Source: Methanobacteriota archaeon
GTDB taxonomy: Archaea > JAADCQ01 > Methanopyri > Methanopyrales > Methanopyraceae
Assembly (NCBI GenBank): GCA_027064425.1
Contig: JAMOPO010000029.1
Location: 1 to 42,185 of the forward strand
Direction of reading: 5' to 3'
Length of the DNA: 42,185 nucleotides
Part shown: positions 660 to 41,930 of the stretch, piece by piece
How the letters are laid out: every line of letters begins with the position of its first letter
Numbering within the stretch: the first letter of the stretch is position 1
Notes under the pieces: model-generated
The model's database searches: none
What the model saw: only the letters and a program-made list of their open reading frames with translations
Told to the model about the DNA's origin: nothing
Made by a program: the position numbers and the translations under genes

Positions 660-681
660 CGTTACGCTCTTCGTAACGATT
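660..681 (-). repeat. Palindrome AAT-CGTTACG-N5-CGTAACG (copy 1)
   Basis: CGTTACG ctctt CGTAACG at 660-678; on the minus strand it is preceded by AAT, like the copies after the two tRNAs. Confidence 0.85.
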
Positions 682-703
682 GTCGCCGGCGCGGGGCGGC
701 CGG

Positions 704-766
704 TCAGCACCCTCGGGACCTATCATCGCGCGTGGCTCAAGATGGGGCTAATCCCCGCGTCATCCC
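704..766 (-). ncRNA. Box C/D sRNA, probable 16S guide
   Basis: C GGGATGA, D' TTGA, C' CGATGA, D CTGA, with a flanking GC terminal stem. Guides are complementary to TGGGGCTAATCCCC and ACCCTCGGGAC, both resembling the archaeal 16S 5' domain just beyond the window edge. Confidence 0.85.
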
Positions 767-812
767 GACCGCCCCGGTGGTGGTGCCGGCCTTCGGGGTT
801 TAATGGGTGCGG

Positions 813-872
813 TCGGGTGGGCGGTTTGCGATCATCCCGTCCGGTCGTCCCCCGTGGCCGTGTCCTCATCCC
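813..872 (-). ncRNA. Box C/D sRNA candidate
   Basis: C GGGATGA, D' ACGA, C' GGGATGA, D CCGA. D guide is complementary to GTGGGCGGTTTG, resembling 23S just 5' of the P-loop. Confidence 0.7.
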
Positions 873-995
873 GTCGGTCCCCTTCGAGCTCCTGGAGGGA
901 AGGGTGTTGTGAGCTCGCGGCGAGGTCGGGGGTGCAGCCGGCGGGGACGGTGGCGCCGTGGTGAGTCCGCCGCCGGGGGTGGGGCTTGAAGCGCT

Positions 996-1547
996 TCACG
1001 TCCGGTCCCGCTCGGGGGCGTGGATCTCGTAGAAGCCCTCGTAGGCGGAGTGGTAAGAGGGGACGCCGAGGCGCTGGAGGGCGCGCTCGAGTTCGCGCTC
1101 GAGCTCGCGGTAGGGTGCGGGGTCGTCGGTGGTCTCGAGCAGGTGGGCGCGGTGGGCGCGGTCGCAGGTGGCTCGGCAGGGGACGAAGCCCTCGGTGAGG
1201 ACGGTGGTGGTGGGTGGGTCGTGGTCGTAGCGGGTGTGGCCGTCGAGGAAGTAGTCGACGCAGCAGTCGGGGTAGTCGAGGAAGCGGCCGATGAGCTCGT
1301 CGTCGAGGGTGTACACGCCGAGGCGCTCGGCGACGTAGGGGTGCAGGGCGGGGCGGACGTGGAGGCCGGAGTTCTCCCAGAGCTCGAGCTCGGTCTCGAC
1401 GATGGCGGTGCAGAGCTGGAGGTCGTGTGGGGTGGTGCGCTGGAGGGCGAACCGGGCGATGGGGTGGGGCTCGGGGAGGTCGCCGGTGCCCTCGAGGTGG
1501 GACTGCAGGTCCTGTAGGAAGTTAAGCACTCGCTCGAGCGCGTGCAA
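996..1547 (-). CDS. DUF483-like conserved archaeal protein
   Basis: VRPAL...IGRFLDYPDCCV..F and GFVPC...C motifs. Start moved from 1610 to TTG 1547 because 1560-1619 is an sRNA. Confidence 0.7.
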   Translation of the reverse strand: MHALERVLNFLQDLQSHLEGTGDLPEPHPIARFALQRTTPHDLQLCTAIVETELELWENSGLHVRPALHPYVAERLGVYTLDDELIGRFLDYPDCCVDYFLDGHTRYDHDPPTTTVLTEGFVPCRATCDRAHRAHLLETTDDPAPYRELERELERALQRLGVPSYHSAYEGFYEIHAPERDRT

Positions 1548-1559
1548 GGTGGCCGCCCC

Positions 1560-1619
1560 GGGATGAGGAGCTAGTCCGGGGGTGAGGGTCTCCCGATGAT
1601 CGGCCTCCACGGCCCCTGA
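1560..1619 (+). ncRNA. Box C/D sRNA
   Basis: C GGGATGA 1560, D' GTGA 1582, C' CCGATGA 1593, D CTGA 1616; 15-16 nt guides. Confidence 0.75.
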
Positions 1620-1673
1620 CCGGTCGTAGCGGTTTTACGCTTATCTTCCCGGGCGCGTTGGGGGTGGCTCGGC

Positions 1674-2660
1674 TTGGTCGTGGTGCGCTCGGTTTCGAGG
1701 CTGCACGTGACGCTGATCGACCTGCACGGTGGGCTGGGCCGCGTGGACGGTAGCGTGGGGGTGACGTTGGAGGAGCCGTGGATGGAGTTCGAGGTGGAGC
1801 GGGCGGAGGATGGGGTGGAGGTGGTGGGGAAGGGTGAGGTGGCGGAGAAGGCGGAGCGGGCGGCGCGGGTGGTGCTGGAGGAGTTCGGGCTGGAGGGTGG
1901 CGCGCGGGTCGTGGTGCGTCGGTCGTACCCGGAGCACGTGGGGCTGGGCTCGGGGACGCAGGCGACGCTGTCGGCGGCGGTGGGCGTGCTGGAGGCGTTC
2001 GGGGTGGAGGAGTACGACGTGCGGGAGCTGGCGGACCTGCTGGGTCGCGGTGGGACGTCGGGGATCGGGGTGGCGGCGTTCGAGGGTGGTGGGTTCATCG
2101 TGGACGGTGGGCACCGGTTCGGTGAGGGTGGGAAGGAGGGGTTCAAGCCGTCGTCGGCGTCGGGCGAGGTGCCGCCGGCGCCGGTGGTGGCGCGGCTGGA
2201 CGTGCCGGAGGACTGGCGGTTTGTGCTGGCGATCCCGGAGGTTAGGCGGGGGGCGCACGGGGACGAGGAGGTGGACATCTTCCGGCGGTACTGCCCGGTG
2301 CCGGCGCGGGAGGTGGAGAGGGTGTGCCGGCTGGTGTTGATGGTGATGCTGCCGGCGGTGGCGGAGGGGGATGCGGAGGCGTTCGGTCGGGCTGTGGACG
2401 AGGTGCAGGAGCTGGGGTTCAAGCGGGTGGAGGTGGGGCTGCAGGACGAGGTGGTGCGGGAGCTGATGGAGGTGGCGCGTGGGGCGGGCGCGTACGGTGC
2501 CGGGCTGAGCTCGTTCGGGCCGACGGTGTACGCGGTGTGCGACTCGGCGTCGGCGGGCGATGTAGCGCGGGAGCTGGAGCGGTTCCTGAAGGAGCGTGGG
2601 GTGGGTGGCGAGGTGATCGTGTCGGGGCCCCGAAACGAGGGGTTCGAGGTGCGCGGGTGA
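1674..2660 (+). CDS. mptG: Beta-ribofuranosylaminobenzene 5'-phosphate synthase (GHMP family)
   Basis: SRLHVTLIDL, HVGLGSGTQ, GRGGTSGIG, GGFIVDGGH and GLSSFGPTVY motifs. Confidence 0.9.
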   Translation: MVVVRSVSRLHVTLIDLHGGLGRVDGSVGVTLEEPWMEFEVERAEDGVEVVGKGEVAEKAERAARVVLEEFGLEGGARVVVRRSYPEHVGLGSGTQATLSAAVGVLEAFGVEEYDVRELADLLGRGGTSGIGVAAFEGGGFIVDGGHRFGEGGKEGFKPSSASGEVPPAPVVARLDVPEDWRFVLAIPEVRRGAHGDEEVDIFRRYCPVPAREVERVCRLVLMVMLPAVAEGDAEAFGRAVDEVQELGFKRVEVGLQDEVVRELMEVARGAGAYGAGLSSFGPTVYAVCDSASAGDVARELERFLKERGVGGEVIVSGPRNEGFEVRG

Positions 2661-2789
2661 GAAAAGGGTTCAAATAGGGCGGCGGGGTGAGTACGCGCGC
2701 GTTCCGTGGGGAAGGGAAACATAAGCGTTTTTTGGCGGGTCGGACGGGTCTTATGGTGAGCGTCGGCCGATGATCGGGGGGCCGGCTCG

Positions 2790-4049
2790 TTGGGCGTGTA
2801 CGTGGCTGAGAACATCACGGGCGTGTACGCCTTCGATGAGGAGGGTAACCTGATCGACAGCGAGCCGTTCCCGGCGGATCCGGACGAGATCGTGGACCGG
2901 CTGATCCGGAAGGAGCGCGGTGAGGTGCTGGAGGAGGAAGAGAAGCTGCTCTCGAGGCTGGACGCGGACACGATCAACTTCGAGGGTACGAAGGCGGACC
3001 GTGAGCGGCTGGAGGACGTGGTGGACGGCGAGCTGATCGTGGAGTTCCCGAACGTGGCGGGTGAGATCCTGCGCGAGCGGGCGCGGGAGCTGGCCGTTGA
3101 GGTCGGTGTGATCGAGTCCGAGGAGGAGTACTCGGAGCTGGCCTACGAGGTCGGTATCAAGCTGTCGAAGCGGAAGGTGCGGGAGACGGTCGAGGAGCGG
3201 GACAAGATGATCATCCAGGCGATCAACACGATCGACGACATCGACCGGATCCTGAACATCCTGACGGATCGGGTGCGGGAGTGGTACGGGATCCACTTCC
3301 CAGAGATCAACAAGATCGTGAAGAAGCACGACGACTTCGTGACGCTGGTGGCGGAGCTGGGTCATCGAGACAACTTCACGAAGGAGAAGATCAAGGAGGT
3401 GCTGCCGGACTTCCCCGACCACCTGGCGGAGAAGCTGGAGGAGGCCGCGAAGGACTCGATGGGTGCGGAGATGGACGAGAAGGACCTGCAGGCCGTGCAG
3501 CGGGTGGCGGAGATCGCGCGGGAGCTGTACGAGATCCGGCGGAAGACGGCGGACTACATCGACGAGTCGATGGACGACGTGGCCCCGAACATCAAGGCGC
3601 TGGTGGGCCCGCTGATCGGCGCGCGGCTGATCGCGCTGGCCGGTGGTCTGAAGGAGATGGCGCGGCTGCCGGCGAGCACGATCCAGCTGCTGGGTGCGGA
3701 GAAGGCGCTGTTCCGGCACCTGACGAAGGGTACGAAGCCGCCGAAGCACGGTGTGATCTTCCAGCACCCGCTGATCCACCGGAGCCCGTGGTGGCAGCGC
3801 GGTAAGATCGCGCGGGCGCTGGCGGGTAAGCTGGCGATCGCGGCGCGGATCGACGCGTACTCGGGTGAGTACCGGGGCGACGAGCTGAAGCGGCAGCTGG
3901 AGCAGCGGGTGAAGGAGATCAAGGAGAAGTACCCGAAGCCACCGAAGCGGCGCGGGCGCGGTCGGCCGCCGCGCGGTCGGCGCGGTCGGCGTCGCCGGTC
4001 GCCGAGGCGCTCGCGCCGGGACCGGAGGCGCCGCTCGCGCAGGCGCTGA
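2790..4049 (+). CDS. nop5: Box C/D RNP protein Nop5 (Nop56/58)
   Basis: REWYGIHFPE, APNI..LVG..IGARLI, PASTIQLLGAEKALF, PPKHGVIFQ, RGKIARALAGK. Confidence 0.97.
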   Translation: MGVYVAENITGVYAFDEEGNLIDSEPFPADPDEIVDRLIRKERGEVLEEEEKLLSRLDADTINFEGTKADRERLEDVVDGELIVEFPNVAGEILRERARELAVEVGVIESEEEYSELAYEVGIKLSKRKVRETVEERDKMIIQAINTIDDIDRILNILTDRVREWYGIHFPEINKIVKKHDDFVTLVAELGHRDNFTKEKIKEVLPDFPDHLAEKLEEAAKDSMGAEMDEKDLQAVQRVAEIARELYEIRRKTADYIDESMDDVAPNIKALVGPLIGARLIALAGGLKEMARLPASTIQLLGAEKALFRHLTKGTKPPKHGVIFQHPLIHRSPWWQRGKIARALAGKLAIAARIDAYSGEYRGDELKRQLEQRVKEIKEKYPKPPKRRGRGRPPRGRRGRRRRSPRRSRRDRRRRSRRR

Positions 4050-4094
4050 ATTTTTCCGCCCTTAAACCACCCCTCCACCCGGGGGTGGTGAGAG

Positions 4095-4793
4095 ATGGTC
4101 GAGGTCGAGATCGAGCCGCACGAGGAGTTCGAGGGCGTGTACTGGGCGATCTTCGAGGACGGTACGCGGAAGCCCGCGACGGAGAACCTGGTCCCGGGTC
4201 ACCAGGTGTACGGTGAGCGGCTGGTGGAGTACGACGGCACGGAGTACCGGGTCTGGGAGCCGGGTCGGAGCAAGCTGGCCGCGATGATCATGAACGGCAT
4301 GGAGCACTTCCCGTTCGAGGAGGGGAGCCGGGTCCTCTACCTGGGCGCGGCGGCGGGTACGACGCCCTCGCACGTGTCGGACATCATCAAGGAGTCGGGC
4401 ATTGAGTACTGCGTGGAGTTCGCGTCGCGAATGATGCAGGAGCTGATCCCGGTGTGCGAGAAGCGGCCGAACATGGTGCCGATCCTGGGCGACGCGACCA
4501 AGCCGCACGAGTACGCGGAGATCGTGGACCAGGTGGACGTGATCTACCAGGACATCGCGCAGCCGAAGCAGGCGGAGGTCGTGGCGGACAACGCAGAGGC
4601 GTTCCTGAAGCCGGGCGGGATCATCATCGTGGCGGTTAAGTCGCGCTCGATCGACGTGACGAAGGAGCCGGAGGAGGTGTTCAAGGAGGAGGAGCGGAAG
4701 CTGGAGGAGCGCGGCTTCGAGATCCTGGAGGTCATCGACCTGGAGCCGTACGAGCGCGACCACGTGGGCATCGTGGCGGAGTACCAGGGCTAG
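4095..4793 (+). CDS. flpA: Fibrillarin-like rRNA/tRNA 2'-O-methyltransferase
   Basis: VYGE, YRVW..RSKLAA, VLYLGAAAGTTPSHVSD, DIAQP; adjacent to nop5. Confidence 0.97.
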   Translation: MVEVEIEPHEEFEGVYWAIFEDGTRKPATENLVPGHQVYGERLVEYDGTEYRVWEPGRSKLAAMIMNGMEHFPFEEGSRVLYLGAAAGTTPSHVSDIIKESGIEYCVEFASRMMQELIPVCEKRPNMVPILGDATKPHEYAEIVDQVDVIYQDIAQPKQAEVVADNAEAFLKPGGIIIVAVKSRSIDVTKEPEEVFKEEERKLEERGFEILEVIDLEPYERDHVGIVAEYQG

Positions 4794-4813
4794 CGCCCGC
4801 CCACGCTCATCCA

Positions 4814-4867
4814 GTGATGAGCATTTCGCTAGCCGACGTCGTGGATGACGAGTTACTCCCGCTCTGA
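4814..4867 (+). ncRNA. Box C/D sRNA, probable 23S H69/H71 guide
   Basis: C GTGATGA, D' CCGA, C' TGGATGA, D CTGA. Guides are complementary to TAGCGAAATGC and GCGGG(A/G)GTAACT. Confidence 0.88.
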
Positions 4868-4954: not shown

Positions 4955-4962
4955 AGGAGGGC

Positions 4963-14797: not shown

Positions 14798-15571
14798 GTG
14801 GGGCAACGGGCTGTGAAGCTGGACGTTGACGTAGCCATCCGGGTCAACGGCGTCCTGCTAACGCCCGACGAGCTCGAGCTCCTGGTCAAGCTCTCGGAGA
14901 TGGGCTCCATGTCCAAGGTGGCGGAGGAGGTCGGCGTCACCAGGTCCGCGGTGCACAAGCGAATCCGGAGCCTCGAGGAGCGCCTCGGGTACCGGCTCGT
15001 CGAGTCCAGCCCGCTCGGATCGCACCTGACCGAGCACGGACGGAAGATCGTCGTAAAGTACCTGAACGCCAAGAATCAGCTCTCCAGCTCGGAGATGACG
15101 GTGGCCTGCTCCGAGACGGTCGTGGAGGAAGTCCTCTCCGCCCTCGGCGACAGCGGGGACAGCGTCAACATCATCGTCCCACCGCACAAGAAAATGAGCC
15201 GGATCGAGGCGGACGTGATCATCCCGGACGATCCAGTCGTCGCGTTCGACCGCTCGGAGGAGGCCGACAGTGATCCCATCGTCGTCCGACGCACCAGGCT
15301 CGTCCGAGTCGGCGACGGGGACAGGTTCGTCGAGGTCCCGGGGAGCGCCCAGCGGCTGTACCTGGCGGATAAGGGGGAGGCGCCGGCCGCCGCGCACGTG
15401 GCTTACTACTTCTCCGCCCTGAAGAAGGTAAGGGAGGGGGACTTCTGGACCGTCGTGCCCCAGGAGCTGGCCCCTGAGGCCGCCGAGGAGGGACCGGAGT
15501 ACACTATTATGGCGCTGCCCCTGACGCGGGAAGGGGAGGAAATCGTTGAGGTGCTGGATCGTGCTCGCTAG
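14798..15571 (+). CDS. LysR/ModE-type HTH transcriptional regulator
   Basis: GSMSKVAEEVGVTRSAVHKRIRSLEERLG..LV...GS.LT..G; divergent from hdrCB. Confidence 0.85.
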   Translation: MGQRAVKLDVDVAIRVNGVLLTPDELELLVKLSEMGSMSKVAEEVGVTRSAVHKRIRSLEERLGYRLVESSPLGSHLTEHGRKIVVKYLNAKNQLSSSEMTVACSETVVEEVLSALGDSGDSVNIIVPPHKKMSRIEADVIIPDDPVVAFDRSEEADSDPIVVRRTRLVRVGDGDRFVEVPGSAQRLYLADKGEAPAAAHVAYYFSALKKVREGDFWTVVPQELAPEAAEEGPEYTIMALPLTREGEEIVEVLDRAR

Positions 15572-15902
15572 CCTGCTGCTCCTGGCGACCCCGGTCGCCG
15601 GGCAGGACCAGGCCCAGCAGAAGCCGCCGCAGGGCCCGCCTCAGCAGCGGCCGCCGGGTGGTCCGCTCATCGACGCCGGAGGCGGTGGCGCGGCACCACA
15701 AGCTCCCACGGGGGCCGGGCCCGCGGGGAGTGCGGCCGGGGGAGGCGTGACCGGCGGCGCAGGGTACCAGCTCACGAGTCCCCTGTACTCCGTCATGTGG
15801 GCGACGTCGGAGATACCGTGGTTCCCGGTGGGGCTGATCCTGGCGGCCGCGCTCGGGTACTACGTGGGGAGCCGGAAGGGGCCTTCGCCCTGGGAGGAGT
15901 AG
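15546..15902 (+). CDS. Small exported/membrane-anchored protein with a Q/P/G low-complexity linker
   Basis: Signal-peptide-like N-terminus, Q/P/G-rich middle, C-terminal TM helix. Confidence 0.6.
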   Translation: MRCWIVLASLLLLATPVAGQDQAQQKPPQGPPQQRPPGGPLIDAGGGGAAPQAPTGAGPAGSAAGGGVTGGAGYQLTSPLYSVMWATSEIPWFPVGLILAAALGYYVGSRKGPSPWEE

Positions 15903-15911: not shown

Positions 15912-16613
15912 CTAGGGGATCGGGATCTCGGTGATGGACTCACCGACGCGCTTCAGCGCGGCCGGGTCCAGCGCCACCACCACGCACTCGTCCGGGACGC
16001 CGGCGTAGGTCCGTGAGCCGTTGCACCCGAGCGTGACGTTGATCCCGCCGCGCTTGACGATGGCGCCGACCGCGTCGCCGCACAGTGACTGGATGCCGGA
16101 GAAGCCCGCCTCCACGCGCCCCCCTTCTTGGTACAGGTACGCCTGGACGATGTGCATCGCCTGCTTGGGCTCGCAGACGATCAGGACGGAGTCGGGCACC
16201 GTCTCGGCCTCCACGGCCCGCTCGTAGGAGACCGCCTCGTACACGCCCTCACCGTCGTACGCCTTGGGCACGCGCTCCACCGTCCGCTTGGCCGCGGACA
16301 GGGTGGCGTGCTGTCCCAGCTCCTCGTGGTAGAACCGGCCGGTCCGCACGGGCTCTGGGATGTCGCAGAGTCCGATCGCGGCGGCCCCGCCCTTGCACAG
16401 CTGCTCGTCCGGCGTGGTGTACACCCTGTCCAGCTCTCCCTTGGCCACCTGCATGACCAGCTCGCAGTGCCGGAGCTTCTCCTCGACGCGCTCGTACGCG
16501 TCCGGCACCTCGTCCTCGGACAGGTACAGCTTGATGGCCACGGGATCAAGCTCAAGGTCGAGGGTGTCCACAACGGCGCTCGCCGCCTCGCGAACGTCCT
16601 CCCTCCGGGTCAT
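15912..16613 (-). CDS. DUF169 family protein
   Basis: PVAIKL, RHCE, C.GGAAA.G, QSLCGD, LGCNGSR; ATG at 16613. Confidence 0.85.
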   Translation of the reverse strand: MTRREDVREAASAVVDTLDLELDPVAIKLYLSEDEVPDAYERVEEKLRHCELVMQVAKGELDRVYTTPDEQLCKGGAAAIGLCDIPEPVRTGRFYHEELGQHATLSAAKRTVERVPKAYDGEGVYEAVSYERAVEAETVPDSVLIVCEPKQAMHIVQAYLYQEGGRVEAGFSGIQSLCGDAVGAIVKRGGINVTLGCNGSRTYAGVPDECVVVALDPAALKRVGESITEIPIP

Positions 16614-16692
16614 GCGAATGCCCCCGCTCGTTCGTTGGTCGCGAACTACCGCGGCGTTTCCATACTTCAGTGTTTCGATCGGGGGGCGGAGC

Positions 16693-18300: not shown

Positions 18301-19524
18301 ATGGCCGTTCAGATCGCCCAGCTCTCCTGCGGTACCGAGTACAGCGGGGTCCAGCCCGAGATCGAGCGCGCCGCCGAGCGCGTGGGCGCCGAGATCGTCT
18401 TCCCCGAGGTGGACCTGGACCTGATCGAGGAGGCGTGCGAGGAGATCGGGTACCGACCCAAGAGCGCGAACCTCCGCGTGCTCCTGGCCCGGGCGTACGC
18501 GCTCGCGGAGGGCTACGCCGAGGCGGACGCGGTGCTCATCCTCACCTGCTTCCGGTGCGCCGAGGGCGCGCTGGTTCGCAGCGAGGCCCGGCGCTACCTC
18601 CAGGAGCGGACCGACCTGCCCGTGGTCACGTACTCCTTCACCGAGGACCTCGACGCGGGCGAGCTGCTCACCCGGCTCGAGGCGCTGGTCACCATCGTGG
18701 AGCGGAAGGGCCTCCTCGCCCGGAAGCGCCAGGAGGGGCTCACGCTCGGGATCGACTCCGGCTCGACCACGACCAAGGCGGTGGTGATGGAGGACGACGA
18801 GGTCATCGGGACCGGCTGGGTTCGCACGACCAAGGTCGTCGAGTCCGCCGAGAAGGCCGTCGAGCGGGCCCTCGAGGAGGCCGGTTACGAGCTGGACGAC
18901 ATCGAGGCGATCGGCGTGACCGGGTACGGCCGCTTCACCCTCGGCAAGCACTTCGACGCCGACCTCGTACAGGAGGAGCTCACGGTCAACTCCAAGGGTA
19001 CCGTGTACCTGGGCGGCAAGCAGGAGGGCGGGGCCACGGTCATCGACGTGGGCGGGATGGACAACAAGGCGATCACCGTCTGGGACGGCATCCCGGACAA
19101 CTTCACCATGGGCGGCGTGTGCGCGGGAGCCTCCGGCCGCTTCCTCGAGGTGGCCGCCGACCGGATCGGGGTCGACCTCGAGGAGTTCGGAGAGCTCGCC
19201 GTGAAGGGTGACCCCGAGAACGTCCGCCTCGACAGCTACTGCATCGTGTTCGGGATCCAGGACCTCGTGACGGCGCTCGCCGAGGGCGCCGACCCGGAGG
19301 ACGCCGCGGCCGCCGCCTGCTACAGCGTCGCCGAGCAGCTCTACGAGCAGCAGCTTCAAGAGATCGACATCCGAGAGCCCGTGTTCTTCGTCGGAGGCGC
19401 CTCCCTGATCAAGGGCATGGTGAGGGCGCTGGAGGACGTGATCGGCGTCGAGGTGCGCGTACCGCCCCACTCCCAGTACATCGGCGCCGTCGGCGCCGCC
19501 CTCCTGGCCTCCAACTACGTGTAA
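18301..19524 (+). CDS. mmp15: Methanogenesis marker protein 15 (ASKHA/activator-type ATPase)
   Basis: [50 protein letters not shown]. Confidence 0.92.
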
Positions 19525-21965: not shown

Positions 21966-23288
21966 GTGGCGGGGGACAACCAGGCCCGGACCCGCGCACC
22001 CAAGGCGGGCATACACGACCGCCGCGTCCTGGTTATTGAAGTTTTCCCCGGCCTCACCCCGCCCAGGAGCCTCCTAAGGGACCTCAACCGCGAGGAGCGA
22101 AAGCTCCTCCTCGCCGCCGCCGGCCACCCCGACCTCCACTTCTGGGCCCGAAACACCATCGCCTACCTCTTCGACCACCCCACCCCCCTCCTCCTCGCCG
22201 CCGAACGACACGAGCGCATCCTCCCCACCGCCGTCCGCACCGTCGTCGAGCACCTGACCAACGACCCCAAGCGAGCCGACAAGGCCGCCCGGCTGGTACG
22301 AAAGGGCCACACCCCCCGCGAGGCCACCACCCACGCCGCCGGCCCCGACACCGCCCGCACCACCGCCCGAATCCTCGGCCGCACCCTGGGCTACATCCAG
22401 TCGGACCCGCTGACCATCGCCCTCACCCTCCAGGTCCTGGGCGTGCTGCTCACAGCACCGCACCGACTGCGACCGCTGACCCACATCCTCGTCGTGATCC
22501 CCGAGCTCAAGCACCTGAACATCCACCCGGAGCGCCTCGCCCGCCGCGTCTACTCCACCCTCTACCGCGCCCTCCGCACCCTCGACATCCCCCGCCACCT
22601 GACCCTCCGCGTCTACCTGAAGCGCGAGGACGGCCGCCTCGAGGACCCGCGCGGCGAGCCCACGGAGACCTTCCTGGTCGAGGCCTACGAGGAGCTCTTC
22701 CACCACCGACCGCACGCCGGCGGCAAGCACTTCCCGCCCCACGACCGCACCGCGCACGTCACCGCCTGGGCCCACGCCCTCGCCCGCGCCCTCACCGACC
22801 GCGTCCGCCGAGACCTACACCGGCGCGGGCTACGCGCCGCCCAGCGCGCCAAGCAACGCGGAGAGGACCCCAACGACGCCTACCAGCGAGAGCGCAACAA
22901 GTGGCTCAAACGCTGGTTCCGCCGCGGCCGAGCCTGGCTCAAGCACCACCGACCCGCCCCAACCCTCTCCCGACTCTCCGCCCACTTCGTCCTCCGGGAG
23001 GCCGGCACCGAGCTCCTGCACACCCCCGGATTCCTGGCCCGCGTGACGCGCACCACCCTCCGAACCCTGCTTCGAGCGGGGAACCTGACCCGGATCGGCG
23101 TCCGGCAGACGGTCCGACGCGTCGCCCGGAAGCTGGTCGAGAGGTTCCAACCCACCCCGGATCAGGCCAAGCACATCCTGAAGCTCCTGCGCCGAGCACG
23201 CCGCCGAGTGCTCGGTGACAGGACGCTGCTGGAGGCCTTTGGGACCCCATCGCGGCTCGAGGCGCTGGCCCGCAGCCCGCCCGGCTGA
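21966..23288 (+). CDS. Orphan, very basic (R/H/T/L-rich) hypothetical protein
   Basis: 440-codon ORF filling the gap, with the same C-ending codon bias as neighbouring genes; no family recognised, start uncertain. Confidence 0.6.
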   Translation: MAGDNQARTRAPKAGIHDRRVLVIEVFPGLTPPRSLLRDLNREERKLLLAAAGHPDLHFWARNTIAYLFDHPTPLLLAAERHERILPTAVRTVVEHLTNDPKRADKAARLVRKGHTPREATTHAAGPDTARTTARILGRTLGYIQSDPLTIALTLQVLGVLLTAPHRLRPLTHILVVIPELKHLNIHPERLARRVYSTLYRALRTLDIPRHLTLRVYLKREDGRLEDPRGEPTETFLVEAYEELFHHRPHAGGKHFPPHDRTAHVTAWAHALARALTDRVRRDLHRRGLRAAQRAKQRGEDPNDAYQRERNKWLKRWFRRGRAWLKHHRPAPTLSRLSAHFVLREAGTELLHTPGFLARVTRTTLRTLLRAGNLTRIGVRQTVRRVARKLVERFQPTPDQAKHILKLLRRARRRVLGDRTLLEAFGTPSRLEALARSPPG

Positions 23289-23340
23289 GTTGAAACCACG
23301 GGCGCAAGCCGCGCGACCCGGGGTGGGACCGGGGCCGCAG

Positions 23341-23662
23341 ATCGTTAAGAAGTTCGAAACAATGTGACACACGCTTGTCGTGCCGTTAAGAACGCACCCA
23401 GGGCGCTCAGAAAAGTGTTTTTCCTGAAGCTAACGAGACCACAAAACACAACCCTAAGCGCTGCCTTCATCGCGCTAATACCCGGCTAACCAAATAGATA
23501 ACCAAATAACCTGGTATTTGGACCAATATCTAACTTGAACCGAGCTTAAGTGATGACAGGCTGAAGCCGGTTGTCAGCCTTGATTCATGCGTTCTTTAAC
23601 CCGGGCGCGTCCCCCGGCGGGGCTGTGATCGGTTGGTTCCGGTTCGCTCGACCGTTGTTTCG
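23341..23662. other. AT-rich symmetric intergenic region; candidate replication origin
   Basis: Longest AT-enriched noncoding stretch in the window, with nested inverted repeats, sitting at a C-rich to G-rich strand switch. Confidence 0.55.
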
Positions 23663-35677: not shown

Positions 35678-36408
35678 TCCTGGAGGTGGAGGACCTGAGG
35701 AAGAGCTACGACGACCTGCTCGTGCTCAACGGGCTCACCTTCAAGGTCGCGAAGGGCGAGTTCTTCGCGATCGTCGGGCCCAGCGGGTGCGGTAAGACCA
35801 CCCTGCTCCGGATCATCGCCGGCCTCGAGGATTACGACGAGGGCCGGGTCCTCGTGGACGGGAAGGAGGTCACGGGGCCCGGCCCCGATCGGGCCATGGT
35901 CTTCCAGGACTACGCCATCTTCCCCTGGAAGACCGTTCTCGAGAACATCATGTTCGCCCCGCTGATGCAGGGCAAGGACCGCGAGGAGGCCGAGCGGATC
36001 GCGCGCTGGTGCCTCGAGGTCGTCCCCGGGCTCGAGGGGTTCGAGGACGCGTACCCCAAGCAGCTCTCCGGCGGCATGAAGCAGCGCGTGGCCATCGCCC
36101 GCGCCCTCGCCGCCAAGCCGAAGATCCTGCTCATGGACGAGCCCTTCGCCGCCGTGGACGCGCAGACGCGCAACAAGCTGCAGGAGGAGCTCCTCAAGGT
36201 CTGGGAGAAGACCGGTCAGACCATCCTCCTGGTGACTCACAACGTCGAGGAGGCCGTCTTCCTCGCCGACCGCGTGATGGTCCTCTCACCACGGCCCGCC
36301 GAGATCGTGGACATCGTCGAGGTCGACCTGCCCCGGCCCCGTGACCGCACCGACCCCGAGTTCGTTAAAATCCGGGCCGAAATCCTCGAGATGCTCGGCG
36401 CCCGATGA
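35668..36408 (+). CDS. NitT/TauT ABC ATP-binding protein
   Basis: GPSGCGKT, LSGGMKQR, LLMDEPF, VTH. Confidence 0.96.
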   Translation: MEVILEVEDLRKSYDDLLVLNGLTFKVAKGEFFAIVGPSGCGKTTLLRIIAGLEDYDEGRVLVDGKEVTGPGPDRAMVFQDYAIFPWKTVLENIMFAPLMQGKDREEAERIARWCLEVVPGLEGFEDAYPKQLSGGMKQRVAIARALAAKPKILLMDEPFAAVDAQTRNKLQEELLKVWEKTGQTILLVTHNVEEAVFLADRVMVLSPRPAEIVDIVEVDLPRPRDRTDPEFVKIRAEILEMLGAR

Positions 36409-36453
36409 GGAGAAGAGGGTTAGCCGAGCTGTGACGAGCGTTTGCCGGCCCGA
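36402..36453 (+). ncRNA. Box C/D sRNA, probable 23S H68/H69 guide
   Basis: C CCGATGA, D' CCGA, C' GTGACGA, D CCGA. Guides are complementary to TAACCCTCTT and GCCGG(C/T)AAACG. Confidence 0.8.
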
Positions 36454-37210
36454 GGCGGACCTCTGGCGCGAGCTCGGCTGCCCCACCCTCGTCTTCAACG
36501 CGCCCATGTCCGGCCACACCGACCCCGAGTTCGCCGCCCGCGCCGAGCGGCACGGCGCCGGCATGGTCTTCCTCGGCGGCTACCCCGGCGACGAGCCCAC
36601 CTACCGCGCCTCCCGCCGCGTCGCCCGACGCCGCCCCGAGTTCGCACTACCCCCCGAGCGACTCCCGGACGAGCTCTCCCGCACCGACGTGAGCGTCCCC
36701 ATCGCCGTCAACGTCCGGATCACCGACCCCAACGCGGCCGCCGAGCTCGCCGGCGACCTCGCTGAGCTCGTCGACGTATTCGAGGTGAACGCTCACTGCC
36801 GGCAGCCCGAGATCGTCGAGGCCGGCGCCGGCGAGGCCCTGCTCGAGGAGCCCGAGCGGCTCGCCGAGCTCGTCGAGGCCGTCGCCGAGCACGACCTGCA
36901 CGTCTCCGTCAAGCTCCGCGGCCCGCACCCCGGCTACCGAGCCGCCCTCCGAGAGCTCCGCGACGCGCCCGTGGACATCCTCCACGTGGACGCGATGAAG
37001 CCCGGCGAGCCCACCTACGACCTCCGCTACGTCCGCCAGGCCGCCCGCCTGGACGCCGAGGTCATCGGCAACAACTCCGTGCGCACGCCCGAGGACGTCG
37101 ACAACATGTTCGAGGCCGGCGCCACCGCCGTGTCCGTCGGCCGGCCCCTCCTCGACGGGGACTGGGACCTCCTCGAGCGGCTCGCCGGGCACGCTAGGCT
37201 GGAGGAATGA
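36431..37210 (+). CDS. Dus/NifR3-related FMN TIM-barrel protein
   Basis: APMSG.TD..F, EVNAHCRQPE, G.G..LL, SVKLR, HVDAM, IGNNSV. Confidence 0.85.
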   Translation: MTSVCRPEADLWRELGCPTLVFNAPMSGHTDPEFAARAERHGAGMVFLGGYPGDEPTYRASRRVARRRPEFALPPERLPDELSRTDVSVPIAVNVRITDPNAAAELAGDLAELVDVFEVNAHCRQPEIVEAGAGEALLEEPERLAELVEAVAEHDLHVSVKLRGPHPGYRAALRELRDAPVDILHVDAMKPGEPTYDLRYVRQAARLDAEVIGNNSVRTPEDVDNMFEAGATAVSVGRPLLDGDWDLLERLAGHARLEE

Positions 37211-37240
37211 GGCCGCGGGGCCTCCCGATCGGCGGATCAT

Positions 37241-37259
37241 CGTTCCACGGCGTGTAACG
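37241..37259. repeat. Degenerate palindrome CGTTCCA-N5-TGTAACG
   Basis: Same 7-5-7 geometry as the other copies; abuts the tRNA-Leu promoter (CTTTATG at ~37264). Confidence 0.55.
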
Positions 37260-37300
37260 AACACTTTATGTCCAGTCCCGGACCGGCGAGGCACGGCGGC

Positions 37301-37390
37301 GCGGGGGCGCCCGAGCCTGGTCGAAGGGGCGGGACTTAAGATCCCGTGGCCGTAGGGCCGTCCCGGGTTCAAATCCCGGCCCCCGCACCA
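37301..37390 (+). tRNA. tRNA-Leu(UAA), encoded CCA, C at position 8
   Basis: Acceptor GCGGGGG/CCCCCGC, anticodon arm CGGGA-CT-TAA-GA-TCCCG, long variable arm, T loop TTCAAAT, discriminator A, then CCA. Confidence 0.97.
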
Positions 37391-37395: not shown

Positions 37396-37417
37396 AATCG
37401 TTATGAAAATCATAACG
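37396..37417 (+). repeat. Palindrome AAT-CGTTATG-N5-CATAACG
   Basis: Perfect 7-bp arms beginning 8 nt after the tRNA-Leu CCA. Confidence 0.85.
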
Positions 37418-37451
37418 GTCGCGCCCCCGCCTCGCCCCGGCCCGCCGTCCC

Positions 37452-38988
37452 CTTTGTAATCGCCAGGCGGCGAAGACCGGAACCGCGCCAGCCCGCGTGG
37501 CGGAGGGAGCGGCTCCCGGGGACCGTGACGACGGTGGGGGCGCGCCTTGCTCCACCCGCGCGCCCTCCTCGGGATCCTCACCCTACCCGTCGTCCGCCGC
37601 TCGCTCCTGCTACTCGTCGCCATCCTCCTCGCCGGCACCCTCGCCTTCCACCTCCTCGAGGGCTGGCCCCTCCTCACCTCGCTCTACTTCACCGCCGCCA
37701 CGATCACCACCGTCGGGTACGGGGACTTGACCCCCACCACCACAACCGGCCGCGCCCTCAGCGTCCTCCTCATGTTCTCCGGCATCGGCCTGGCCTCCTA
37801 CACCCTCGCCGACCTCGCCCGCCTCACCCTCCGCGGGGAGCTCTCCATGGCCCTCCGAGAGGACACCCTCCGGCGGAGGGTCCAGCGCGCCGAGGACCAC
37901 CTCATCGTCTGCGGGTACGGGCGCACCGGCCGCCGGGTCGCCCGGCTCGCCACCGAGCAGTACCGCTTCGAGGTGGTTGTAATCGACCGCGACGAGCGCG
38001 CCTACGAGGCCGCCGTCGGCCACGGCCTCCCCGCCATTCACGGCGACGCCACCCGGGAGGAGACGCTCCGGGAGGCCAACATCGACCGCGCCCGCGCCCT
38101 CATCGTCGCCACCGGTGACGACCGCACCAACGTGTTCGTCACTCTCCTCGCCAAGAACCTCAACCCCGACCTCCACGTCACCGCCACCGCCCACAGCCGG
38201 GAGGGCGCCCGCCTCCTCAAGCGAGCCGGCGCCGACGAGGTCGTCTTCATCCACGACTGCGCCTCCAAGCACATCGTCCGCGCCGCCCTCGCCCCGCTCC
38301 AGCTCCGCATCACCGTCCGCCACACCGTCGACGAGATCCGCGACGTCATGTCCATCATCATCGGCCACGGCGGCGTCGTCCAGGGCGTCGAGTACTACAC
38401 CCCACCTCTCCGCACCCCCATCCGCCGCGACGTTCTCATCACCGACATGAGGGAGGTCCTCCGCTTCGTCGAGCGCCTCGAGCGGGACCCCGACCTCCGC
38501 CGCGCCCTCGAGCGCGTGTACGAGCTCTCCGAGAACGTGCACTCCTACTACGTGATCGTCCACAACGAGGAGGAGCGCAAGCGCATACTCCGCGAGCTCG
38601 ACCGGCGCGACTACCTCGTCGGCGTCGACCTCACCATCGACGAGATCCTCCGGGAGATCGAGCGACTGCGGGAGGAGGGGTGATCCCCGGCGTCCGCCCC
38701 GCTCGGCTTCCCGCCCCCCGCCTCTCTTTGTAATCAGATGGAGGAGCGGCCGCAGGTGCGTGCCAAGGCACCCTCCCTCTTGTGATCGCACGAGCCAGCC
38801 GGGCCCGACCCCACCGGCCCAGTGCCCCGGCGTCATCCTCTCCTTTGTAATCAGTCGTGGTCGGTGCCTTAGGTGCCGACGGCTGAGCTACCGATCGGTG
38901 TTCTCCAGCGCTAGCGTGGAAGCCGCAGGCAGTTTCGGGCGGGACGTCCAGCTCCGGAACATTTTTATCATCCAGCCCGATTACAAAG
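37452..38988. repeat. Dispersed CTTTGTAATC repeats
   Basis: Exact copies at 37452, 38726 and 38843, an inverted copy at 38979, and a variant at 38778. Confidence 0.85.
37547..38683 (+). CDS. Potassium channel with RCK (TrkA-N) domain and a probable C-terminal 3H domain
   Basis: Selectivity filter TTVGYGD between two TM helices; ICGYGRTG Rossmann motif, GDAT, GADEV. Confidence 0.93.
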   Translation: MLHPRALLGILTLPVVRRSLLLLVAILLAGTLAFHLLEGWPLLTSLYFTAATITTVGYGDLTPTTTTGRALSVLLMFSGIGLASYTLADLARLTLRGELSMALREDTLRRRVQRAEDHLIVCGYGRTGRRVARLATEQYRFEVVVIDRDERAYEAAVGHGLPAIHGDATREETLREANIDRARALIVATGDDRTNVFVTLLAKNLNPDLHVTATAHSREGARLLKRAGADEVVFIHDCASKHIVRAALAPLQLRITVRHTVDEIRDVMSIIIGHGGVVQGVEYYTPPLRTPIRRDVLITDMREVLRFVERLERDPDLRRALERVYELSENVHSYYVIVHNEEERKRILRELDRRDYLVGVDLTIDEILREIERLREEG

Positions 38989-39021
38989 GAGTGGCCAGCC
39001 CGGAGCCAGGGGTGGCGGGCC

Positions 39022-39615
39022 GTGTCCTGGGTCAATGTCCCGCTACCCTCCGACCCCGTGGAACGCATTCGATGCCTTCGTGTGCTGCGCGAGGCGTACC
39101 GCCGACAGGTCAAGCCCGAGCTGCGGGAGACGTACCGCAGGATCGGCGGGAGGACGTACGGCCCGTACTACGTCGCGTACTTCAAGCGGGCGCGCGGGTT
39201 CAAGCACCCGCGCCTCATCTACCTGGGTAAGTCGAACCCGAGCGTGGAGTTCGTCGAGTGGCTGGCCGAGCAGCCTGAAAAGAAGGTTCTCAAGCTCGCC
39301 CGGCTCGCCGTCCGGCACCTCCGCGCGGCGCTCGAGCGCCTGGTTGAGGAGGCCTCTAAGGCCGAGCACGTGCGCCGCCTCGTCGCCAGGACCCTCGCGC
39401 TCGCCTTCGACCTCCCGCCCGCGGGCTCGACCAGGCTCCGAAGCCTGCTCAAGCGCGCCCCACGCTTCACCCGGATCGTCCTCGGCCCCTGGGAGGCCTG
39501 GTTCGCAGAGAACGTGCTCCGCAGGCTGCTGTACCGCCGGTCCCGGAATGGTGAGCACTGGGTACCGGACGTGCAGCTCGAGCTTGAGAGGTGGCGGCTC
39601 AGGCGCGCGGAGTGA
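39022..39615 (+). CDS. Methanopyrus-specific basic protein, DUF1678-like
   Basis: LP.DPVERIR.LRVLRE, TYR..GG..YGPYYVA, IYLGKS.N.SV.FVEWL; family recalled from memory. Confidence 0.7.
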   Translation: MSWVNVPLPSDPVERIRCLRVLREAYRRQVKPELRETYRRIGGRTYGPYYVAYFKRARGFKHPRLIYLGKSNPSVEFVEWLAEQPEKKVLKLARLAVRHLRAALERLVEEASKAEHVRRLVARTLALAFDLPPAGSTRLRSLLKRAPRFTRIVLGPWEAWFAENVLRRLLYRRSRNGEHWVPDVQLELERWRLRRAE

Positions 39616-39662
39616 GCCCGGTTCGGCGTACGGTCACTGGTTAGCTCCGAGTCGGCCCACGG

Positions 39663-41663
39663 CTAGTGCGGCTGGGCCAGGGAGTACTGGAGCCTCGAGG
39701 CCAGGCTCGGTATTGGTCGGGGTACGGTAATGGACACACGCACCTCGGTGGTCGGTGTGGAGAGGAGGTGCTGGGGTAGGATCACGAGTAGCTCGAGGAG
39801 GTAGGAGAGGAGCGAGGGTAGGGCTAGCGCCTCCAGGAACCAGCGTGGTGGGCTCAGGGCGAAGACCAGGATGGGACCGCCGAGCTCTAGAGCGTAGATC
39901 GGGGCGAGCGCGGGGTACTCCAGGCACGTGATCGCGGCGTCCAGGAGGTAAGTGATCGCGCTGGTGATCGGGTCGGGACCCTCACCATTGTCCGAGGCGA
40001 GGTAAAGCACGTAGGCGAGTGGTGGCGGGGGCACGGTGATCAGCGTGCCCTGGATCGCGAGCCAGGCGAGATCGCAAGCCGCCCCGATCGGACCCTCCTC
40101 GATCAGTTCTCGGAGGCAACGCCCGACGTACTTGACGGGGTTCAGGAGGACGCGTCTGAGCGTGCCCCACCAGGGCTCGTTGATGCTGTACGCCTCGTCC
40201 AACACCCACTGGACGAAGCGGGCGAGGGCTCCAACGAGTGGTAAGGGCAGGCCCGTGCCGGCCGCGATGAGTCGGAGGCCCCAGAGCCCCAGCGGGAGCG
40301 CCCCGAACACGCCCTCTTGGACGTACGCGCCGGTGAGCGCGTAGGTGAGGAGGCCGAGGTAGTAGCGGCTGGCGAGCGTGGCGAGGCAGGCGGCGAGCCC
40401 TAGGAGCGCGTACTCGGGCGGGAGCCTCGGTGGGGTGATGAGGAACCCGTCGACGAGTGACCGTGGAAGCCCGAGCGCGTCGTTCAGGGCTCGCACAAGG
40501 CAGGCGGTGGAGAGGCCGAGCAGAACGTTGGCCACCTCCTCGCTCGATGGGAACGAGCCCGGTGGGATGGGCAGGTCCGGTGAGATCCGCAGTGTCACTT
40601 CGTACGTGATTGGGCCGGAGCCTCCCTCCGGGTAATACAGGTAGTACCAGTGGATGAGCGTGACCGGGTCGCTGTCGCTCGGGTGCTCGATGACCGGCTC
40701 GAGCGCGCGCAGGTTCTCGACCGCCTCCGCCCGAACCCGCTCGATTCGAACCTCCACGTAGCGCGGGCCGAGGAGCGGGACCACGACTCGCCCGGGCCGC
40801 ACGAGGTACTCGAACGCGCCGACCCGCCGGTCCCTCCAGTAGAGCTCGACCCGCAGGCGGACCGGTCCGGTCGGTACCGTAAGCGTGGCGAAGCTCGGCG
40901 CTTCCTTCCACTCCGAGTCCAACCGAACCTCCTTACCGTCAGTGCGGACGGTCACCAGAGTCCTGGCGTCAAACGATGCTCCGGCGGTCGCGCACAGTTC
41001 CATCCGGTCGCTGTAGAAGGCCAGGGTGAGAGAAGGAAGCGGGAACCCCTTGACCAGCGGTCCCAGCGATCTCAGCGCCACCGCCCGGGGTCTCGTCACC
41101 GCGACGCGCCCGGTGAACTCGGTCGAGCGGTGCTCGAAGCGGTCTCTCGTCCTTACGATGCCGCGGATCACGAGTTCGATTCGGTCGGCCGTCAACTCGA
41201 CCGTGGGTCGGACCGTGACCTCCACAACCTCCCTTCCGACGCGTCGGACGACCTTAACCTCGGGCAGGTTCGCCCCGGCGCACTCCACGGACAGCGGGAA
41301 CTCCAGCGCCGACGCCTCCACGACGATGGGTCTCCCTGGCTCGTCAGCGTGCACCCACCACGGCAGTTCCGCGAGGTACTTCCCGCGGTACTTCACCCGC
41401 AGGAACACGGAGAACTCCGTCAGGACGCGGTCGAGGCGGCGCGTGACCTCGCTCTTCGCCGGCCCGTGCCCGTCCCAGACGCACCGTGCCAGGACCTCGC
41501 CCGTGCTACTGTCCTGGATTACCAGCTCCAGGGTCAGGTGCCTCGTCGGCTGGTCGTCCCCTCGGACGTCCAGGTGGGCGCTCGGCTCCGCGTGCGCCGG
41601 AGCCGGGGCGTCGAGCAGGATCAGGATGATTGGAACCAGGGCTCCGGCGGTCACGGCGATCAC
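39663..41663 (-). CDS. Large hypothetical membrane protein
   Basis: 666 codons: signal peptide, beta-rich extracellular region, multi-TM C-terminus; codon usage less biased than the housekeeping genes. Confidence 0.65.
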   Translation of the reverse strand: MIAVTAGALVPIILILLDAPAPAHAEPSAHLDVRGDDQPTRHLTLELVIQDSSTGEVLARCVWDGHGPAKSEVTRRLDRVLTEFSVFLRVKYRGKYLAELPWWVHADEPGRPIVVEASALEFPLSVECAGANLPEVKVVRRVGREVVEVTVRPTVELTADRIELVIRGIVRTRDRFEHRSTEFTGRVAVTRPRAVALRSLGPLVKGFPLPSLTLAFYSDRMELCATAGASFDARTLVTVRTDGKEVRLDSEWKEAPSFATLTVPTGPVRLRVELYWRDRRVGAFEYLVRPGRVVVPLLGPRYVEVRIERVRAEAVENLRALEPVIEHPSDSDPVTLIHWYYLYYPEGGSGPITYEVTLRISPDLPIPPGSFPSSEEVANVLLGLSTACLVRALNDALGLPRSLVDGFLITPPRLPPEYALLGLAACLATLASRYYLGLLTYALTGAYVQEGVFGALPLGLWGLRLIAAGTGLPLPLVGALARFVQWVLDEAYSINEPWWGTLRRVLLNPVKYVGRCLRELIEEGPIGAACDLAWLAIQGTLITVPPPPLAYVLYLASDNGEGPDPITSAITYLLDAAITCLEYPALAPIYALELGGPILVFALSPPRWFLEALALPSLLSYLLELLVILPQHLLSTPTTEVRVSITVPRPIPSLASRLQYSLAQPH

Positions 41664-41767
41664 CCCGCCGGCCGGTCTTCCTTCTCTCCGTCCGTAGGGT
41701 CAGAGAGGGCCTCGTAAGCGGCTCGCGGGGCTGGGGCCGTGGTGCGCCCGCGCGGGCGTTCGGGCGA

Positions 41768-41782
41768 CGGAAAAGTTATTAG
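41768..41782 (+). promoter_or_regulatory. tRNA-Ser promoter (BRE + TATA)
   Basis: CGGAAAAGTTATTAG about 30 nt upstream of the tRNA. Confidence 0.7.
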
Positions 41783-41812
41783 CATGTAATCTCGTTAACC
41801 GGCCTCGGAGAA

Positions 41813-41903
41813 GCCGGGGCGGCCGAGCCCGGTCCAAGGCGCGGGACTTGAGATCCCGTGGCCCGTATGGGCCGCCCGGGTTCAAATCCCGGCCCCGGCG
41901 CCA
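41813..41903 (+). tRNA. tRNA-Ser(UGA), encoded CCA, C at position 8
   Basis: Acceptor GCCGGGG/CCCCGGC, anticodon arm CGGGA-CT-TGA-GA-TCCCG, long variable arm, discriminator G, then CCA. Confidence 0.97.
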
Positions 41904-41908
41904 TCGAG

Positions 41909-41930
41909 AATCGTTACGGAGTTCGTAACG
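41909..41930 (+). repeat. Palindrome AAT-CGTTACG-N5-CGTAACG
   Basis: Perfect 7-bp arms beginning 8 nt after the tRNA-Ser CCA. Confidence 0.85.

Follow-up and report, generated by a model that had tools for sequence, protein, structure and literature searches.

The stretch analyzed here, herein referred to as the window, comprises 42,185 nucleotides (nt) of contig JAMOPO010000029.1 from a Methanobacteriota archaeon of the family Methanopyraceae (assembly GCA_027064425.1). It is contig C29 of the genome designated G000 (57 contigs, 1,539,955 bp, 67.8% G+C, 99.2% complete). The subject of this work is a palindrome that was recognized in the window from the letters alone and described as CGTTAYG-N5-CRTAACG. 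Three exact matches to this pattern are present (660-678, 37399-37417, and 41912-41930), as the sequence-only reading had reported, and none was found in 100 dinucleotide-preserving shuffles of the window. The looser pattern CGTTA-N9-TAACG matches the same three copies only and occurs in no shuffle. Two of the copies lie within 25-bp palindromes on the plus strand, AATCGTTATGAAAATCATAACGGTC (37396-37420) and AATCGTTACGGAGTTCGTAACGTTG (41909-41933), which begin 5 nt past the encoded CCA ends of tRNA-Leu(UAA) (37301-37390, plus strand) and tRNA-Ser(UGA) (41813-41903, plus strand), respectively. The ends of both tRNAs, predicted with ARAGORN and Rfam, bear out the statement that the 19-bp core starts 8 nt past CCA. 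A convergent open reading frame (ORF) on the minus strand also ends 13 nt from the palindrome behind tRNA-Ser. The trinucleotide AAT, said to precede every copy, is present at both tRNA copies and, for 660-678, on the minus strand.

The copy at 660-678 is part of the palindrome AATCGTTACGAAGAGCGTAACGACG (657-681, minus strand), which scores 29.4 bits with the weight matrix introduced below. It is separated by 22 nt from the D box of a putative C/D-box small RNA (sRNA) gene at 700-770 on the minus strand. The boxes of this gene, GAUGACG (765 to 759), GAUGAUA (727 to 721), and CUGA, the D box (707 to 704), were assigned by eye, and no Rfam family was found above threshold for 700-770. The orthologous stretch in the related genome G002 (a single contig of 1,694,969 bp with 61.2% G+C) keeps the guide CCCGAGGGUG and the boxes, and it is covered by RNA contigs (bin 18677-19343 of the 20-kb locus L056). 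The palindrome itself has a G002 counterpart at L056:19167-19189; from there, the 16S rRNA gene starts about 880 nt further downstream. In the window, a 16S rRNA gene on the same strand, truncated by the contig end, begins about 535 nt downstream of the palindrome (1-121, minus strand; RF01959, 91.4 bits, model positions 1-113). The assembly seems to have divided this gene, with its 5′ end at the window start and a G002-like 3′ trailer with palindrome at C57:193000-193351, again at a contig end.

A fourth palindrome, GATCGTTAAGAAGTTCGAAACAATG (23340-23364, plus strand), follows a protein gene. It had been noticed as a degenerate copy at 23341-23360 and, with 29.1 bits and a conserved counterpart in G002, is a true member of the family. 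It is located 51 nt past the stop codon (23286-23288) of the ORF at 21966-23288. The G002 ortholog of this ORF is 47% identical and has the element 50 nt past its own stop codon (L058:4818). Since the distance is kept despite such low protein identity, the site is considered to be under selection. A fifth copy, CATCGTTCCACGGCGTGTAACGAAC (37238-37262, plus strand), is doubtful. It lies 27 nt past the stop codon (37208-37210) of the ORF at 36341-37210 and adjoins the upstream side of the TATA-like box of tRNA-Leu. Its score is below 18 bits, yet both outer half-sites are present at the right spacing; no G002 counterpart was found at E ≤ 1. The proposal of a degenerate copy at 37241-37259 is thus upheld by the half-sites and left without backing by score and conservation.

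The full 25-nt consensus of the element, derived from the 3′ flanks of 35 ARAGORN tRNA predictions in G000, is AATCGTTACGA-N3-TCGTAACGATT. Throughout this genome, 38 matches were found to CGTTAYG-N5-CRTAACG and 53 to CGTTA-N9-TAACG. A weight matrix trained on 32 G000 tRNA-trailer sites yielded 118 matches of at least 10 bits, including 101 of at least 20 bits, and the same scan of the reversed genome, used as the control, yielded a single match of at least 10 bits, with a top score of 12.7 bits. The genome-wide scan that had been proposed for the motif therefore places it far above background. The spacing between the arms is equally strict: with gaps of 3-15 nt allowed, 53 of 56 CGTTA...TAACG pairs in G000 are exactly 9 nt apart. 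Most half-sites in this genome are part of full sites, and there is no surplus of lone half-sites (counts of 96 and 114 against about 124 expected from base composition). The strict spacing and the lack of lone half-sites indicate that the unit is the whole dyad, which points to a two-fold-symmetric reader. On the same grounds, an intrinsic signal of one arm, doubled to serve both directions, was rejected. Each arm of the G000 tRNA sites is also near-palindromic itself (TCGT-W-ACGA), so the element can alternatively be viewed as two 9-mers 12 bp apart; the inner arm positions are far less conserved in G002 than in G000.

Matches to a strict 21-nt pattern are present in each of the five other genomes of the genus; the 15 genomes searched from other archaeal families have none. 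The backwards-pattern control gave no match in any genome searched. The numbers of strand matches are 54 in G000, 63 in G004, 42 in G005, 37 in G003, 7 in G002, and 4 in G001. A sequence-only covariance model built from 35 tRNA sites of G002 found 122 strand matches at E ≤ 1 in that genome, corresponding to 73 distinct places: all training sites but one (34 of 35) and 39 additional places. Among the genomes searched, the element is restricted to the genus.

The variation in copy number between species (4-7 strict strand matches in G001 and G002 but 37-63 in G003-G005, with 54 in G000) is a feature of repetitive extragenic palindromes and bacterial interspersed mosaic elements (REP/BIME). These are likewise short, imperfect, extragenic inverted repeats that occur in many copies at gene 3′ ends, and the element described here has about 100 copies in G000, nearly all of them intergenic, the majority located at 3′ ends or flanked by convergent genes. 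A REP-like palindrome, selfish or structural, might be tolerated or co-opted at gene ends, for example as a site for a topoisomerase or a nucleoid protein. This is nevertheless improbable. The Y1 transposase of RAYT type (PF01797) has no match in the nearly complete G000 genome and has matches in 6 of 14 control genomes. Moreover, the element stands at a near-fixed distance from essentially all tRNA genes in two diverged species, and orthologous positions are conserved, including that of the protein-gene site described above.

Stable-RNA genes are the most regular partners of the element. In G000, it starts 4-8 nt (mostly 5 nt) past the 3′ end of 32 of the 35 ARAGORN tRNAs. The three predictions that have no element are atypical (lengths of 83, 83, and 88 nt, with no terminal CCA in any) and look spurious. 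Four further sites follow intron-type, tRNA-like 3′ ends that ARAGORN missed. In G002, where introns of up to 120 nt were allowed, 35 of 36 tRNAs have the looser form AATYGTTAYR-N5-YRTAACRWT, and the sole exception is a dubious prediction of 94 nt. Over both genomes, the CGTTA core begins 7-11 nt past the tRNA end. Rfam annotation of seven G002 loci showed that the rRNA genes are also followed by the element, at distances of 7 nt for 5S, 83 nt for 16S (from its 3′ end), and 145 nt for 23S; TTTTT directly follows the last of these. Runs of five or more T were found in none of the 32 G000 tRNA trailers, for which 50 nt of the 3′ flank were examined. The genes for tRNA-Ala and tRNA-Ile are neighbors in G002, each with its own B recognition element (BRE) and TATA box and its own palindrome. 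In the same genome, the tRNA-Lys site is followed after 36 nt by a second one, which faces a convergent gene (L067:800), and another is found about 215 nt upstream of a CRISPR array.

Many of the remaining sites are found behind protein genes. Gene context was classified for G000 only, with codon-usage ORF scoring (1353 calls, 82% of the genome called coding) in which the choice of the longest start over-extends 5′ ends; 14 G002 sites were judged by eye. Though most of the genome is called coding, 88 of the 101 G000 sites are intergenic. Of these, 27 lie between a 3′ end and a 5′ end, 17 between a 5′ end and a 3′ end, 23 between two converging 3′ ends, 4 between two diverging 5′ ends, and 17 at contig ends. 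Nine of the 13 sites called inside genes are within 101 nt of an over-extended ORF start, two fall in an ORF overlapping two tRNAs, one (C35:8689) lies deep in an ORF, and the last is C15:168146. The earlier impression that copies avoid coding sequences, gained in the window, thus holds for the whole genome. At least 34 non-tRNA sites are located no more than 60 nt from a called protein-gene 3′ end. A single palindrome may fit between two converging stop codons, as at C3:58174 (11 and 22 nt from the stops), C26:42681 (13 and 17 nt), and C57:168075 (14 and 8 nt). When 21 protein-gene sites are aligned in the direction of the upstream gene, stop codons can be seen directly. In G002, the element lies 31 nt past a stop codon at L046:5207, where a CCCTCAC tract is present, and between apparently convergent ends at L060:18950. 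Because sites follow protein genes, the element is a mark of gene ends in general, without restriction to stable RNA. Its description as a marker of stable-RNA loci was correct for tRNAs, rRNAs, and sRNAs and was too narrow.

The same distribution bears on the idea that the palindrome is a promoter or operator element, the site of a regulator controlling initiation of the downstream neighbors. Some sites do adjoin promoters, such as the doubtful copy beside the tRNA-Leu TATA-like box, and one sRNA starts 6-7 nt past a site. Convergent ends, however, enclose 23 of the 101 sites and divergent starts only 4; what the element regularly accompanies is a 3′ end upstream of it and not a start downstream, and canonical BRE/TATA boxes are seen apart from it. 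A role in initiation is accordingly very unlikely.

In the 21 oriented protein-gene sites of G000, a C-rich, G-poor tract is located between the stop codon and the palindrome. The box C[CT]CACGCCC was found in this tract at 10 of the 21 sites (L157, L159, L160, L162-L164, L166, L168, L173, and L174). The distance from CAC of the box to AAT of the palindrome is 12 nt at five sites, 11 nt at one, and 25 nt at three. The arrangement CCCACGCCC-N6-AAT was also found in G002, and tracts of this kind lie there at L042:18880-18900 (minus strand) and L046:5176-5206. The C-rich box may be a second part of the gene-end signal.

The arms of the palindrome had been described as covarying. This was examined for the full 11-pair stem on tRNA-oriented sites (35 in G002 and 36 in G000) with 500 shuffles. 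In G002, 74.0% of the stem cells are paired, against 73.9 ± 1.0% in the shuffled controls (262 of 500 as high), and the covariation score is 0.132 against 0.129 (224 of 500 as high). The corresponding values in G000 are 82.3% against 81.5 ± 0.7% (70 of 500) and 0.102 against 0.090 (57 of 500). Individual pairs behave in the same way. Thus, pair 9/17 is CG in 13 G000 sites, UA in 6, UG in 5, and unpaired in 11, and in G002 it is UA in 14, CG in 6, UG in 4, and unpaired in 11. In both genomes, sense-strand U.G wobbles are rarer than non-pairs, and these counts are what independent columns give. Pair 4/22 in G002 has eight C.A mismatches against four U.G wobbles. Maintenance of the stem by covariation was therefore rejected; the impression had arisen because the three window copies happen to be perfect. 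What is kept is the sequence: G5, T6, A20, and C21 are invariant in both species, and A2, T3, T7, and A19 are invariant or nearly so. A fixed dyad that shows no covariation favors a symmetric factor that recognizes a specific sequence.

The predicted RNA stems are A/U-rich, with energies from −3.2 to −12.5 kcal/mol at 37°C, and were judged too weak to act alone in a hyperthermophile. Virtually no hairpin is predicted for the site at 23340 (−3.2 kcal/mol, z 0.15).

Taken as a whole, these observations lead us to lean, with reserve, toward reading the palindrome as a genus-specific, bidirectional gene-end signal, acting in termination and/or 3′-end formation and read as a specific sequence. Such a function is suggested because the element follows stable RNAs, stands close behind stop codons, is common between convergent genes and rare between divergent starts, and is conserved genus-wide, and because adjacent units have separate promoters and the G000 tRNA trailers have no T5 run. 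The signal would serve after stable-RNA genes, after a subset of protein genes, and between convergent gene pairs. Its unit would be the half-sites (A)ATYGTTA and TAACRWT at a fixed distance and not a thermodynamic stem, and a two-fold-symmetric (dimeric) factor would recognize both half-sites. This factor would most likely bind duplex DNA and block RNA polymerase, and less likely bind the transcribed hairpin; recognition of duplex DNA is placed slightly ahead because a hyperthermophile is involved and the stem is A/U-rich, weak, and frequently mismatched. At protein genes, the C-rich, G-poor box would often precede the element at a set distance. Both mechanisms offered by the sequence-only reading, the site of a dimeric DNA-binding protein and a 3′-trailer hairpin serving termination or processing instead of an oligo-T tract, remain the leading ones, and the 3′-end role they share is strongly supported by the positions of the sites; the covariation of the stem has been lost from the second.

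Evidence from RNA was taken from four size-fractionated runs of one study (X1-X4), as assembled contigs with G002 sequence placed on the L056 locus. Contigs with non-templated poly(A) were treated as RNA 3′ ends, the poly(A) presumably being the library tail. Among the contigs listed, 5S rRNA ends at L056:10852-10857, which is its mature end. Back-joined contigs correspond to circular RNAs of 64-71 nt, and those listed map to L056:9814-9881, 15535-15598, 16593-16663, and 19285-19355. Two of these circular RNAs were inspected, and C/D boxes were found in both.

A number of points weigh against the gene-end signal as formulated above. Run X3 has poly(A) ends at L056:10869 and 10870, with one contig each among those listed. 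These ends correspond to positions 8-9 of the 5S-trailing element and fall within its 5′ arm; that is, they lie inside the site and not 10-15 nt upstream of it as with classic roadblocks, and they precede the point at which any hairpin could form. They may be decay products, and they show that the 5′ arm of the element is transcribed at least sometimes. Further, the circular C/D-box sRNA at 16593-16663 (minus strand) starts 6-7 nt downstream of the 16S-trailing element on the same strand, and the same order of 16S-trailer element and sRNA is found in G000 (C57:193030). No promoter of its own was visible for this sRNA in a reading of the locus sequence, which implies either that the site trailing 16S allows read-through or that it works at the RNA level. 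The flanks are also asymmetric. A2 and T3 of the 5′ AAT are constant in all 36 G000 tRNA sites, the mirror ATT is variable, pair 3/23 is not formed in 13 of the 35 distinct rows of the same genome, and protein-gene sites have the same bias (AAT in 13 of 21, ATT in 8 of 21). A symmetric DNA-bound dimer does not predict this asymmetry. The window, for its part, has more T runs of five or longer than expected (12 matches against 3.5; none of 100 shuffles reached 12), with runs at 2728, 4051, 4879, 14746, 17044, 17256, 17265, 23418, and 38962, one of them 54 nt past the 23340 site, so a canonical T-tract signal may coexist with the palindrome. The gene-context figures for G000 rest on crude ORF scoring. 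Finally, the distribution, fixed spacing, genus-wide conservation, and lack of covariation were observed directly, whereas termination itself, the factor, and the level of action (DNA or RNA) are what we infer from them.

Several of these points fit an element that works at the RNA level, in which the hairpin and the 5′ AAU would be bound by an RNA-binding protein or a nuclease that directs endonucleolytic 3′ processing or protects the 3′ end. The target of a tRNA 3′-maturation enzyme is included here, and transcription may then end further downstream. The directional conservation of AAT, the sRNA close behind the 16S-trailer site on the same strand, an arrangement suggestive of a common transcript that is then cleaved, and the RNA 3′ ends inside the 5S-trailing element keep this possibility alive. 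It is also favored by the fixed short distance to mature 3′ ends (4-8 nt for tRNAs, 7 nt for 5S), by the encoding of CCA in all tRNA genes, which would require a defined entry point for 3′ trimming, and by the speculation on a 3′-maturation signal in the available part of an earlier report (PMC5217627). Its difficulties are the lack of covariation, with sense-strand G.U not favored over mismatches; some 18-26% of stem cells that are unpaired; A/U-rich stems in a hyperthermophile with 61-68% G+C; and good sequence matches that have no stable fold, such as that at 23340. Maturation of tRNA alone cannot explain sites after protein genes or between convergent genes. Adjacent tRNAs with their own promoters indicate, in addition, that the element is not simply a separator of co-transcribed RNAs. 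RNA-level action is the most serious competitor of the favored gene-end reading, and we regard it as rather unlikely.

A more specific form of the gene-end signal can be put forward tentatively. The element may be a factor-dependent, sequence-specific bidirectional terminator in which a dimeric protein on the 25-bp palindrome, joined at protein genes by the C-rich RNA box 12 or 25 nt upstream, largely replaces the U-tract. Protein-bound, sequence-specific terminators are represented by Reb1 and TTF-I for RNA polymerase I and by mTERF in mitochondria, with sites that are asymmetric. The palindrome resembles them as a conserved DNA sequence after rRNA and tRNA genes, possibly used in either orientation, that requires neither a U-tract nor a stable hairpin. 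It differs from them in its two-fold symmetry, and at 5S rRNA, the one informative locus, the few ends are found inside the site and not upstream.

Other systems match less closely. According to the available parts of two reviews, archaeal termination occurs on U/T-rich tracts, with or without aCPSF1/FttA, and hairpins are dispensable (PMC7289017; PMC13675443). The same parts contain no sequence-specific terminator site and no termination signal linked to Methanopyrus, and "palindrom" occurs in them only within the name of CRISPR. The palindrome shares with U/T-tract terminators the position at gene ends and, in its 5′ arm, a local A/T-richness in a GC-rich genome; unlike them, it is a specific 25-bp sequence at fixed spacing, and the G000 tRNA trailers have no T5 run. 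Nor does it match a bacterial intrinsic terminator, with its stable GC-rich stem, compensatory changes, and U-tract, since the stem is A/U-rich, covariation equals that of shuffles, and at most 2-4 U follow. Pairs of uptake sequences that double as terminators, discussed in the part of PMC5217627 available, are similar in being a conserved sequence, and not mere structure, arranged as an inverted repeat at gene 3′ ends; here, however, single half-sites are not over-represented, as the counts given above show. The 3′ stem-loop of histone mRNA, which is bound by SLBP and processed by CPSF73 cleavage, offers a parallel at the RNA level. It is also short, conserved in sequence, and marked by an A-rich 5′ flank at RNA 3′ ends, but about a fifth to a quarter of the stem positions are unpaired in the element described here, which also follows tRNAs and rRNAs. 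An archaeal homolog of CPSF73 acts in termination, as stated in the portion available of PMC13675443.

Two other ideas on the palindrome found no support. Topoisomerase V, which we take to be specific to the genus, was considered as its reader. As far as the accessible text of PMC9489208 goes, this enzyme is a non-sequence-specific DNA-binding protein for which solution data favor monomeric DNA binding, and the candidate was dropped on these grounds. The region at 23.3-23.6 kb had been called a candidate replication origin, and readings of the palindrome as a recombinase or initiator site had been offered with it. No Pfam family was found for either ORF flanking 23365-23630 (440 and 324 aa), and the skew profile gave no information. 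A search of 23.3-23.6 kb for repeats like the origin recognition box (ORB) revealed none; a single 10-nt tandem repeat and a weak inverted repeat were all it brought up. Readings as an origin, a recombinase site, or an initiator site are thus unsupported. The AT-rich intergenic region 23365-23630, which follows the 23340 site, contains TAACCAAATA twice in tandem, and the orthologous G002 region (L058:4843-5000) has the related GTAACCAAATAAC.

A recurring short unit was also noted, consisting of a TATA-like box, (G)ATGA(G/A)CTCGC(T), about 55-60 nt, and then the palindrome. It is found in G000 at C2:514-620, C2:3123-3230, C13:2061-2170, and C46:50-153, and in G002 at L098:17535-17645 and L086:6735-6848, with ATGA(G/A)CTCGCTG and palindromes at L098:17621 and L086:6824 identified by eye. 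The unit looks like an unannotated family of small-RNA genes with its own promoter. A connection of the recurring ATGAGCTCGC box with the CRISPR repeat was considered and rejected, the CRISPR repeat of G002 being different in sequence. Two tRNA genes are doubled in G000, trailers included, on small contigs and with near-identical flanks: tRNA-His (C16:2594-2701 and C18:349-456) and tRNA-Ser(UGA) (window 41813-41933 and C32:253-373). Either assembly redundancy or recent duplication could account for them. ARAGORN further predicted a tRNA of 92-101 nt with a four-base anticodon (gggg) in G000 (C15:41309-41409) and in G002 (1499268-1499359), probably a tRNA with a non-canonical intron; it is also followed by the palindrome.

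The sequence-only reading held that no such archaeal element had been described. In fact, "Methanopyrus kandleri AV19, CGTTA(N)9TAACG, tRNA downstream" is listed in a study of 2017 (BMC Genomics; PMC5217627, Table 4 and Fig. 5), and the palindrome of the window is this published element. In the part of that study available, it is placed about 10 bp past tRNA genes, has a palindromic logo, and is organism-specific, about half of the tRNA genes having similar patterns; its role is discussed there as a possible signal for a tRNA 3′-maturation enzyme. The pattern, logo, place, and lineage restriction agree with those found here, and the assignment of the genus to Methanopyrus is based on this agreement of the motif and on a surmise of the sequence-only reading. 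The published motif is placed only after tRNA genes in that part, and the additional files could list others; here, it was also found after rRNAs, sRNAs, and protein genes. Full-text searching brought up no other paper on the palindrome. The available text of Su et al. (2013; PMC3695527) does not mention trailers, terminators, or the palindrome, and its supplementary Table S1 could bear on RNA ends. New here are the use of the element at essentially all stable-RNA genes and at protein-gene ends, its genus-wide occurrence, and the conserved orthologous protein-gene site, as well as the lack of covariation and the upstream C-rich companion box.

The presence of the element at protein-gene ends corrects the only published reading, that of tRNA 3′ maturation. 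About 100 near-identical sites provide a testable exception to accounts of archaeal termination that are based on U/T-tracts, and the palindrome is an obvious bait for its reader protein. In practical terms, it can be used in annotation for locating transcript ends and missed small-RNA genes in Methanopyrus genomes, and it may serve as a compact two-way insulator for the genetics of hyperthermophiles. The transcription machinery of the Methanopyrus lineage is known to be aberrant; as stated in the portion available of PMC7289017, this lineage alone lacks TFS. If the terminator proposed here, with a dimeric protein on the palindrome and the C-rich box, proves true, it would be the first archaeal counterpart of terminators of the Reb1/TTF-I/mTERF type.

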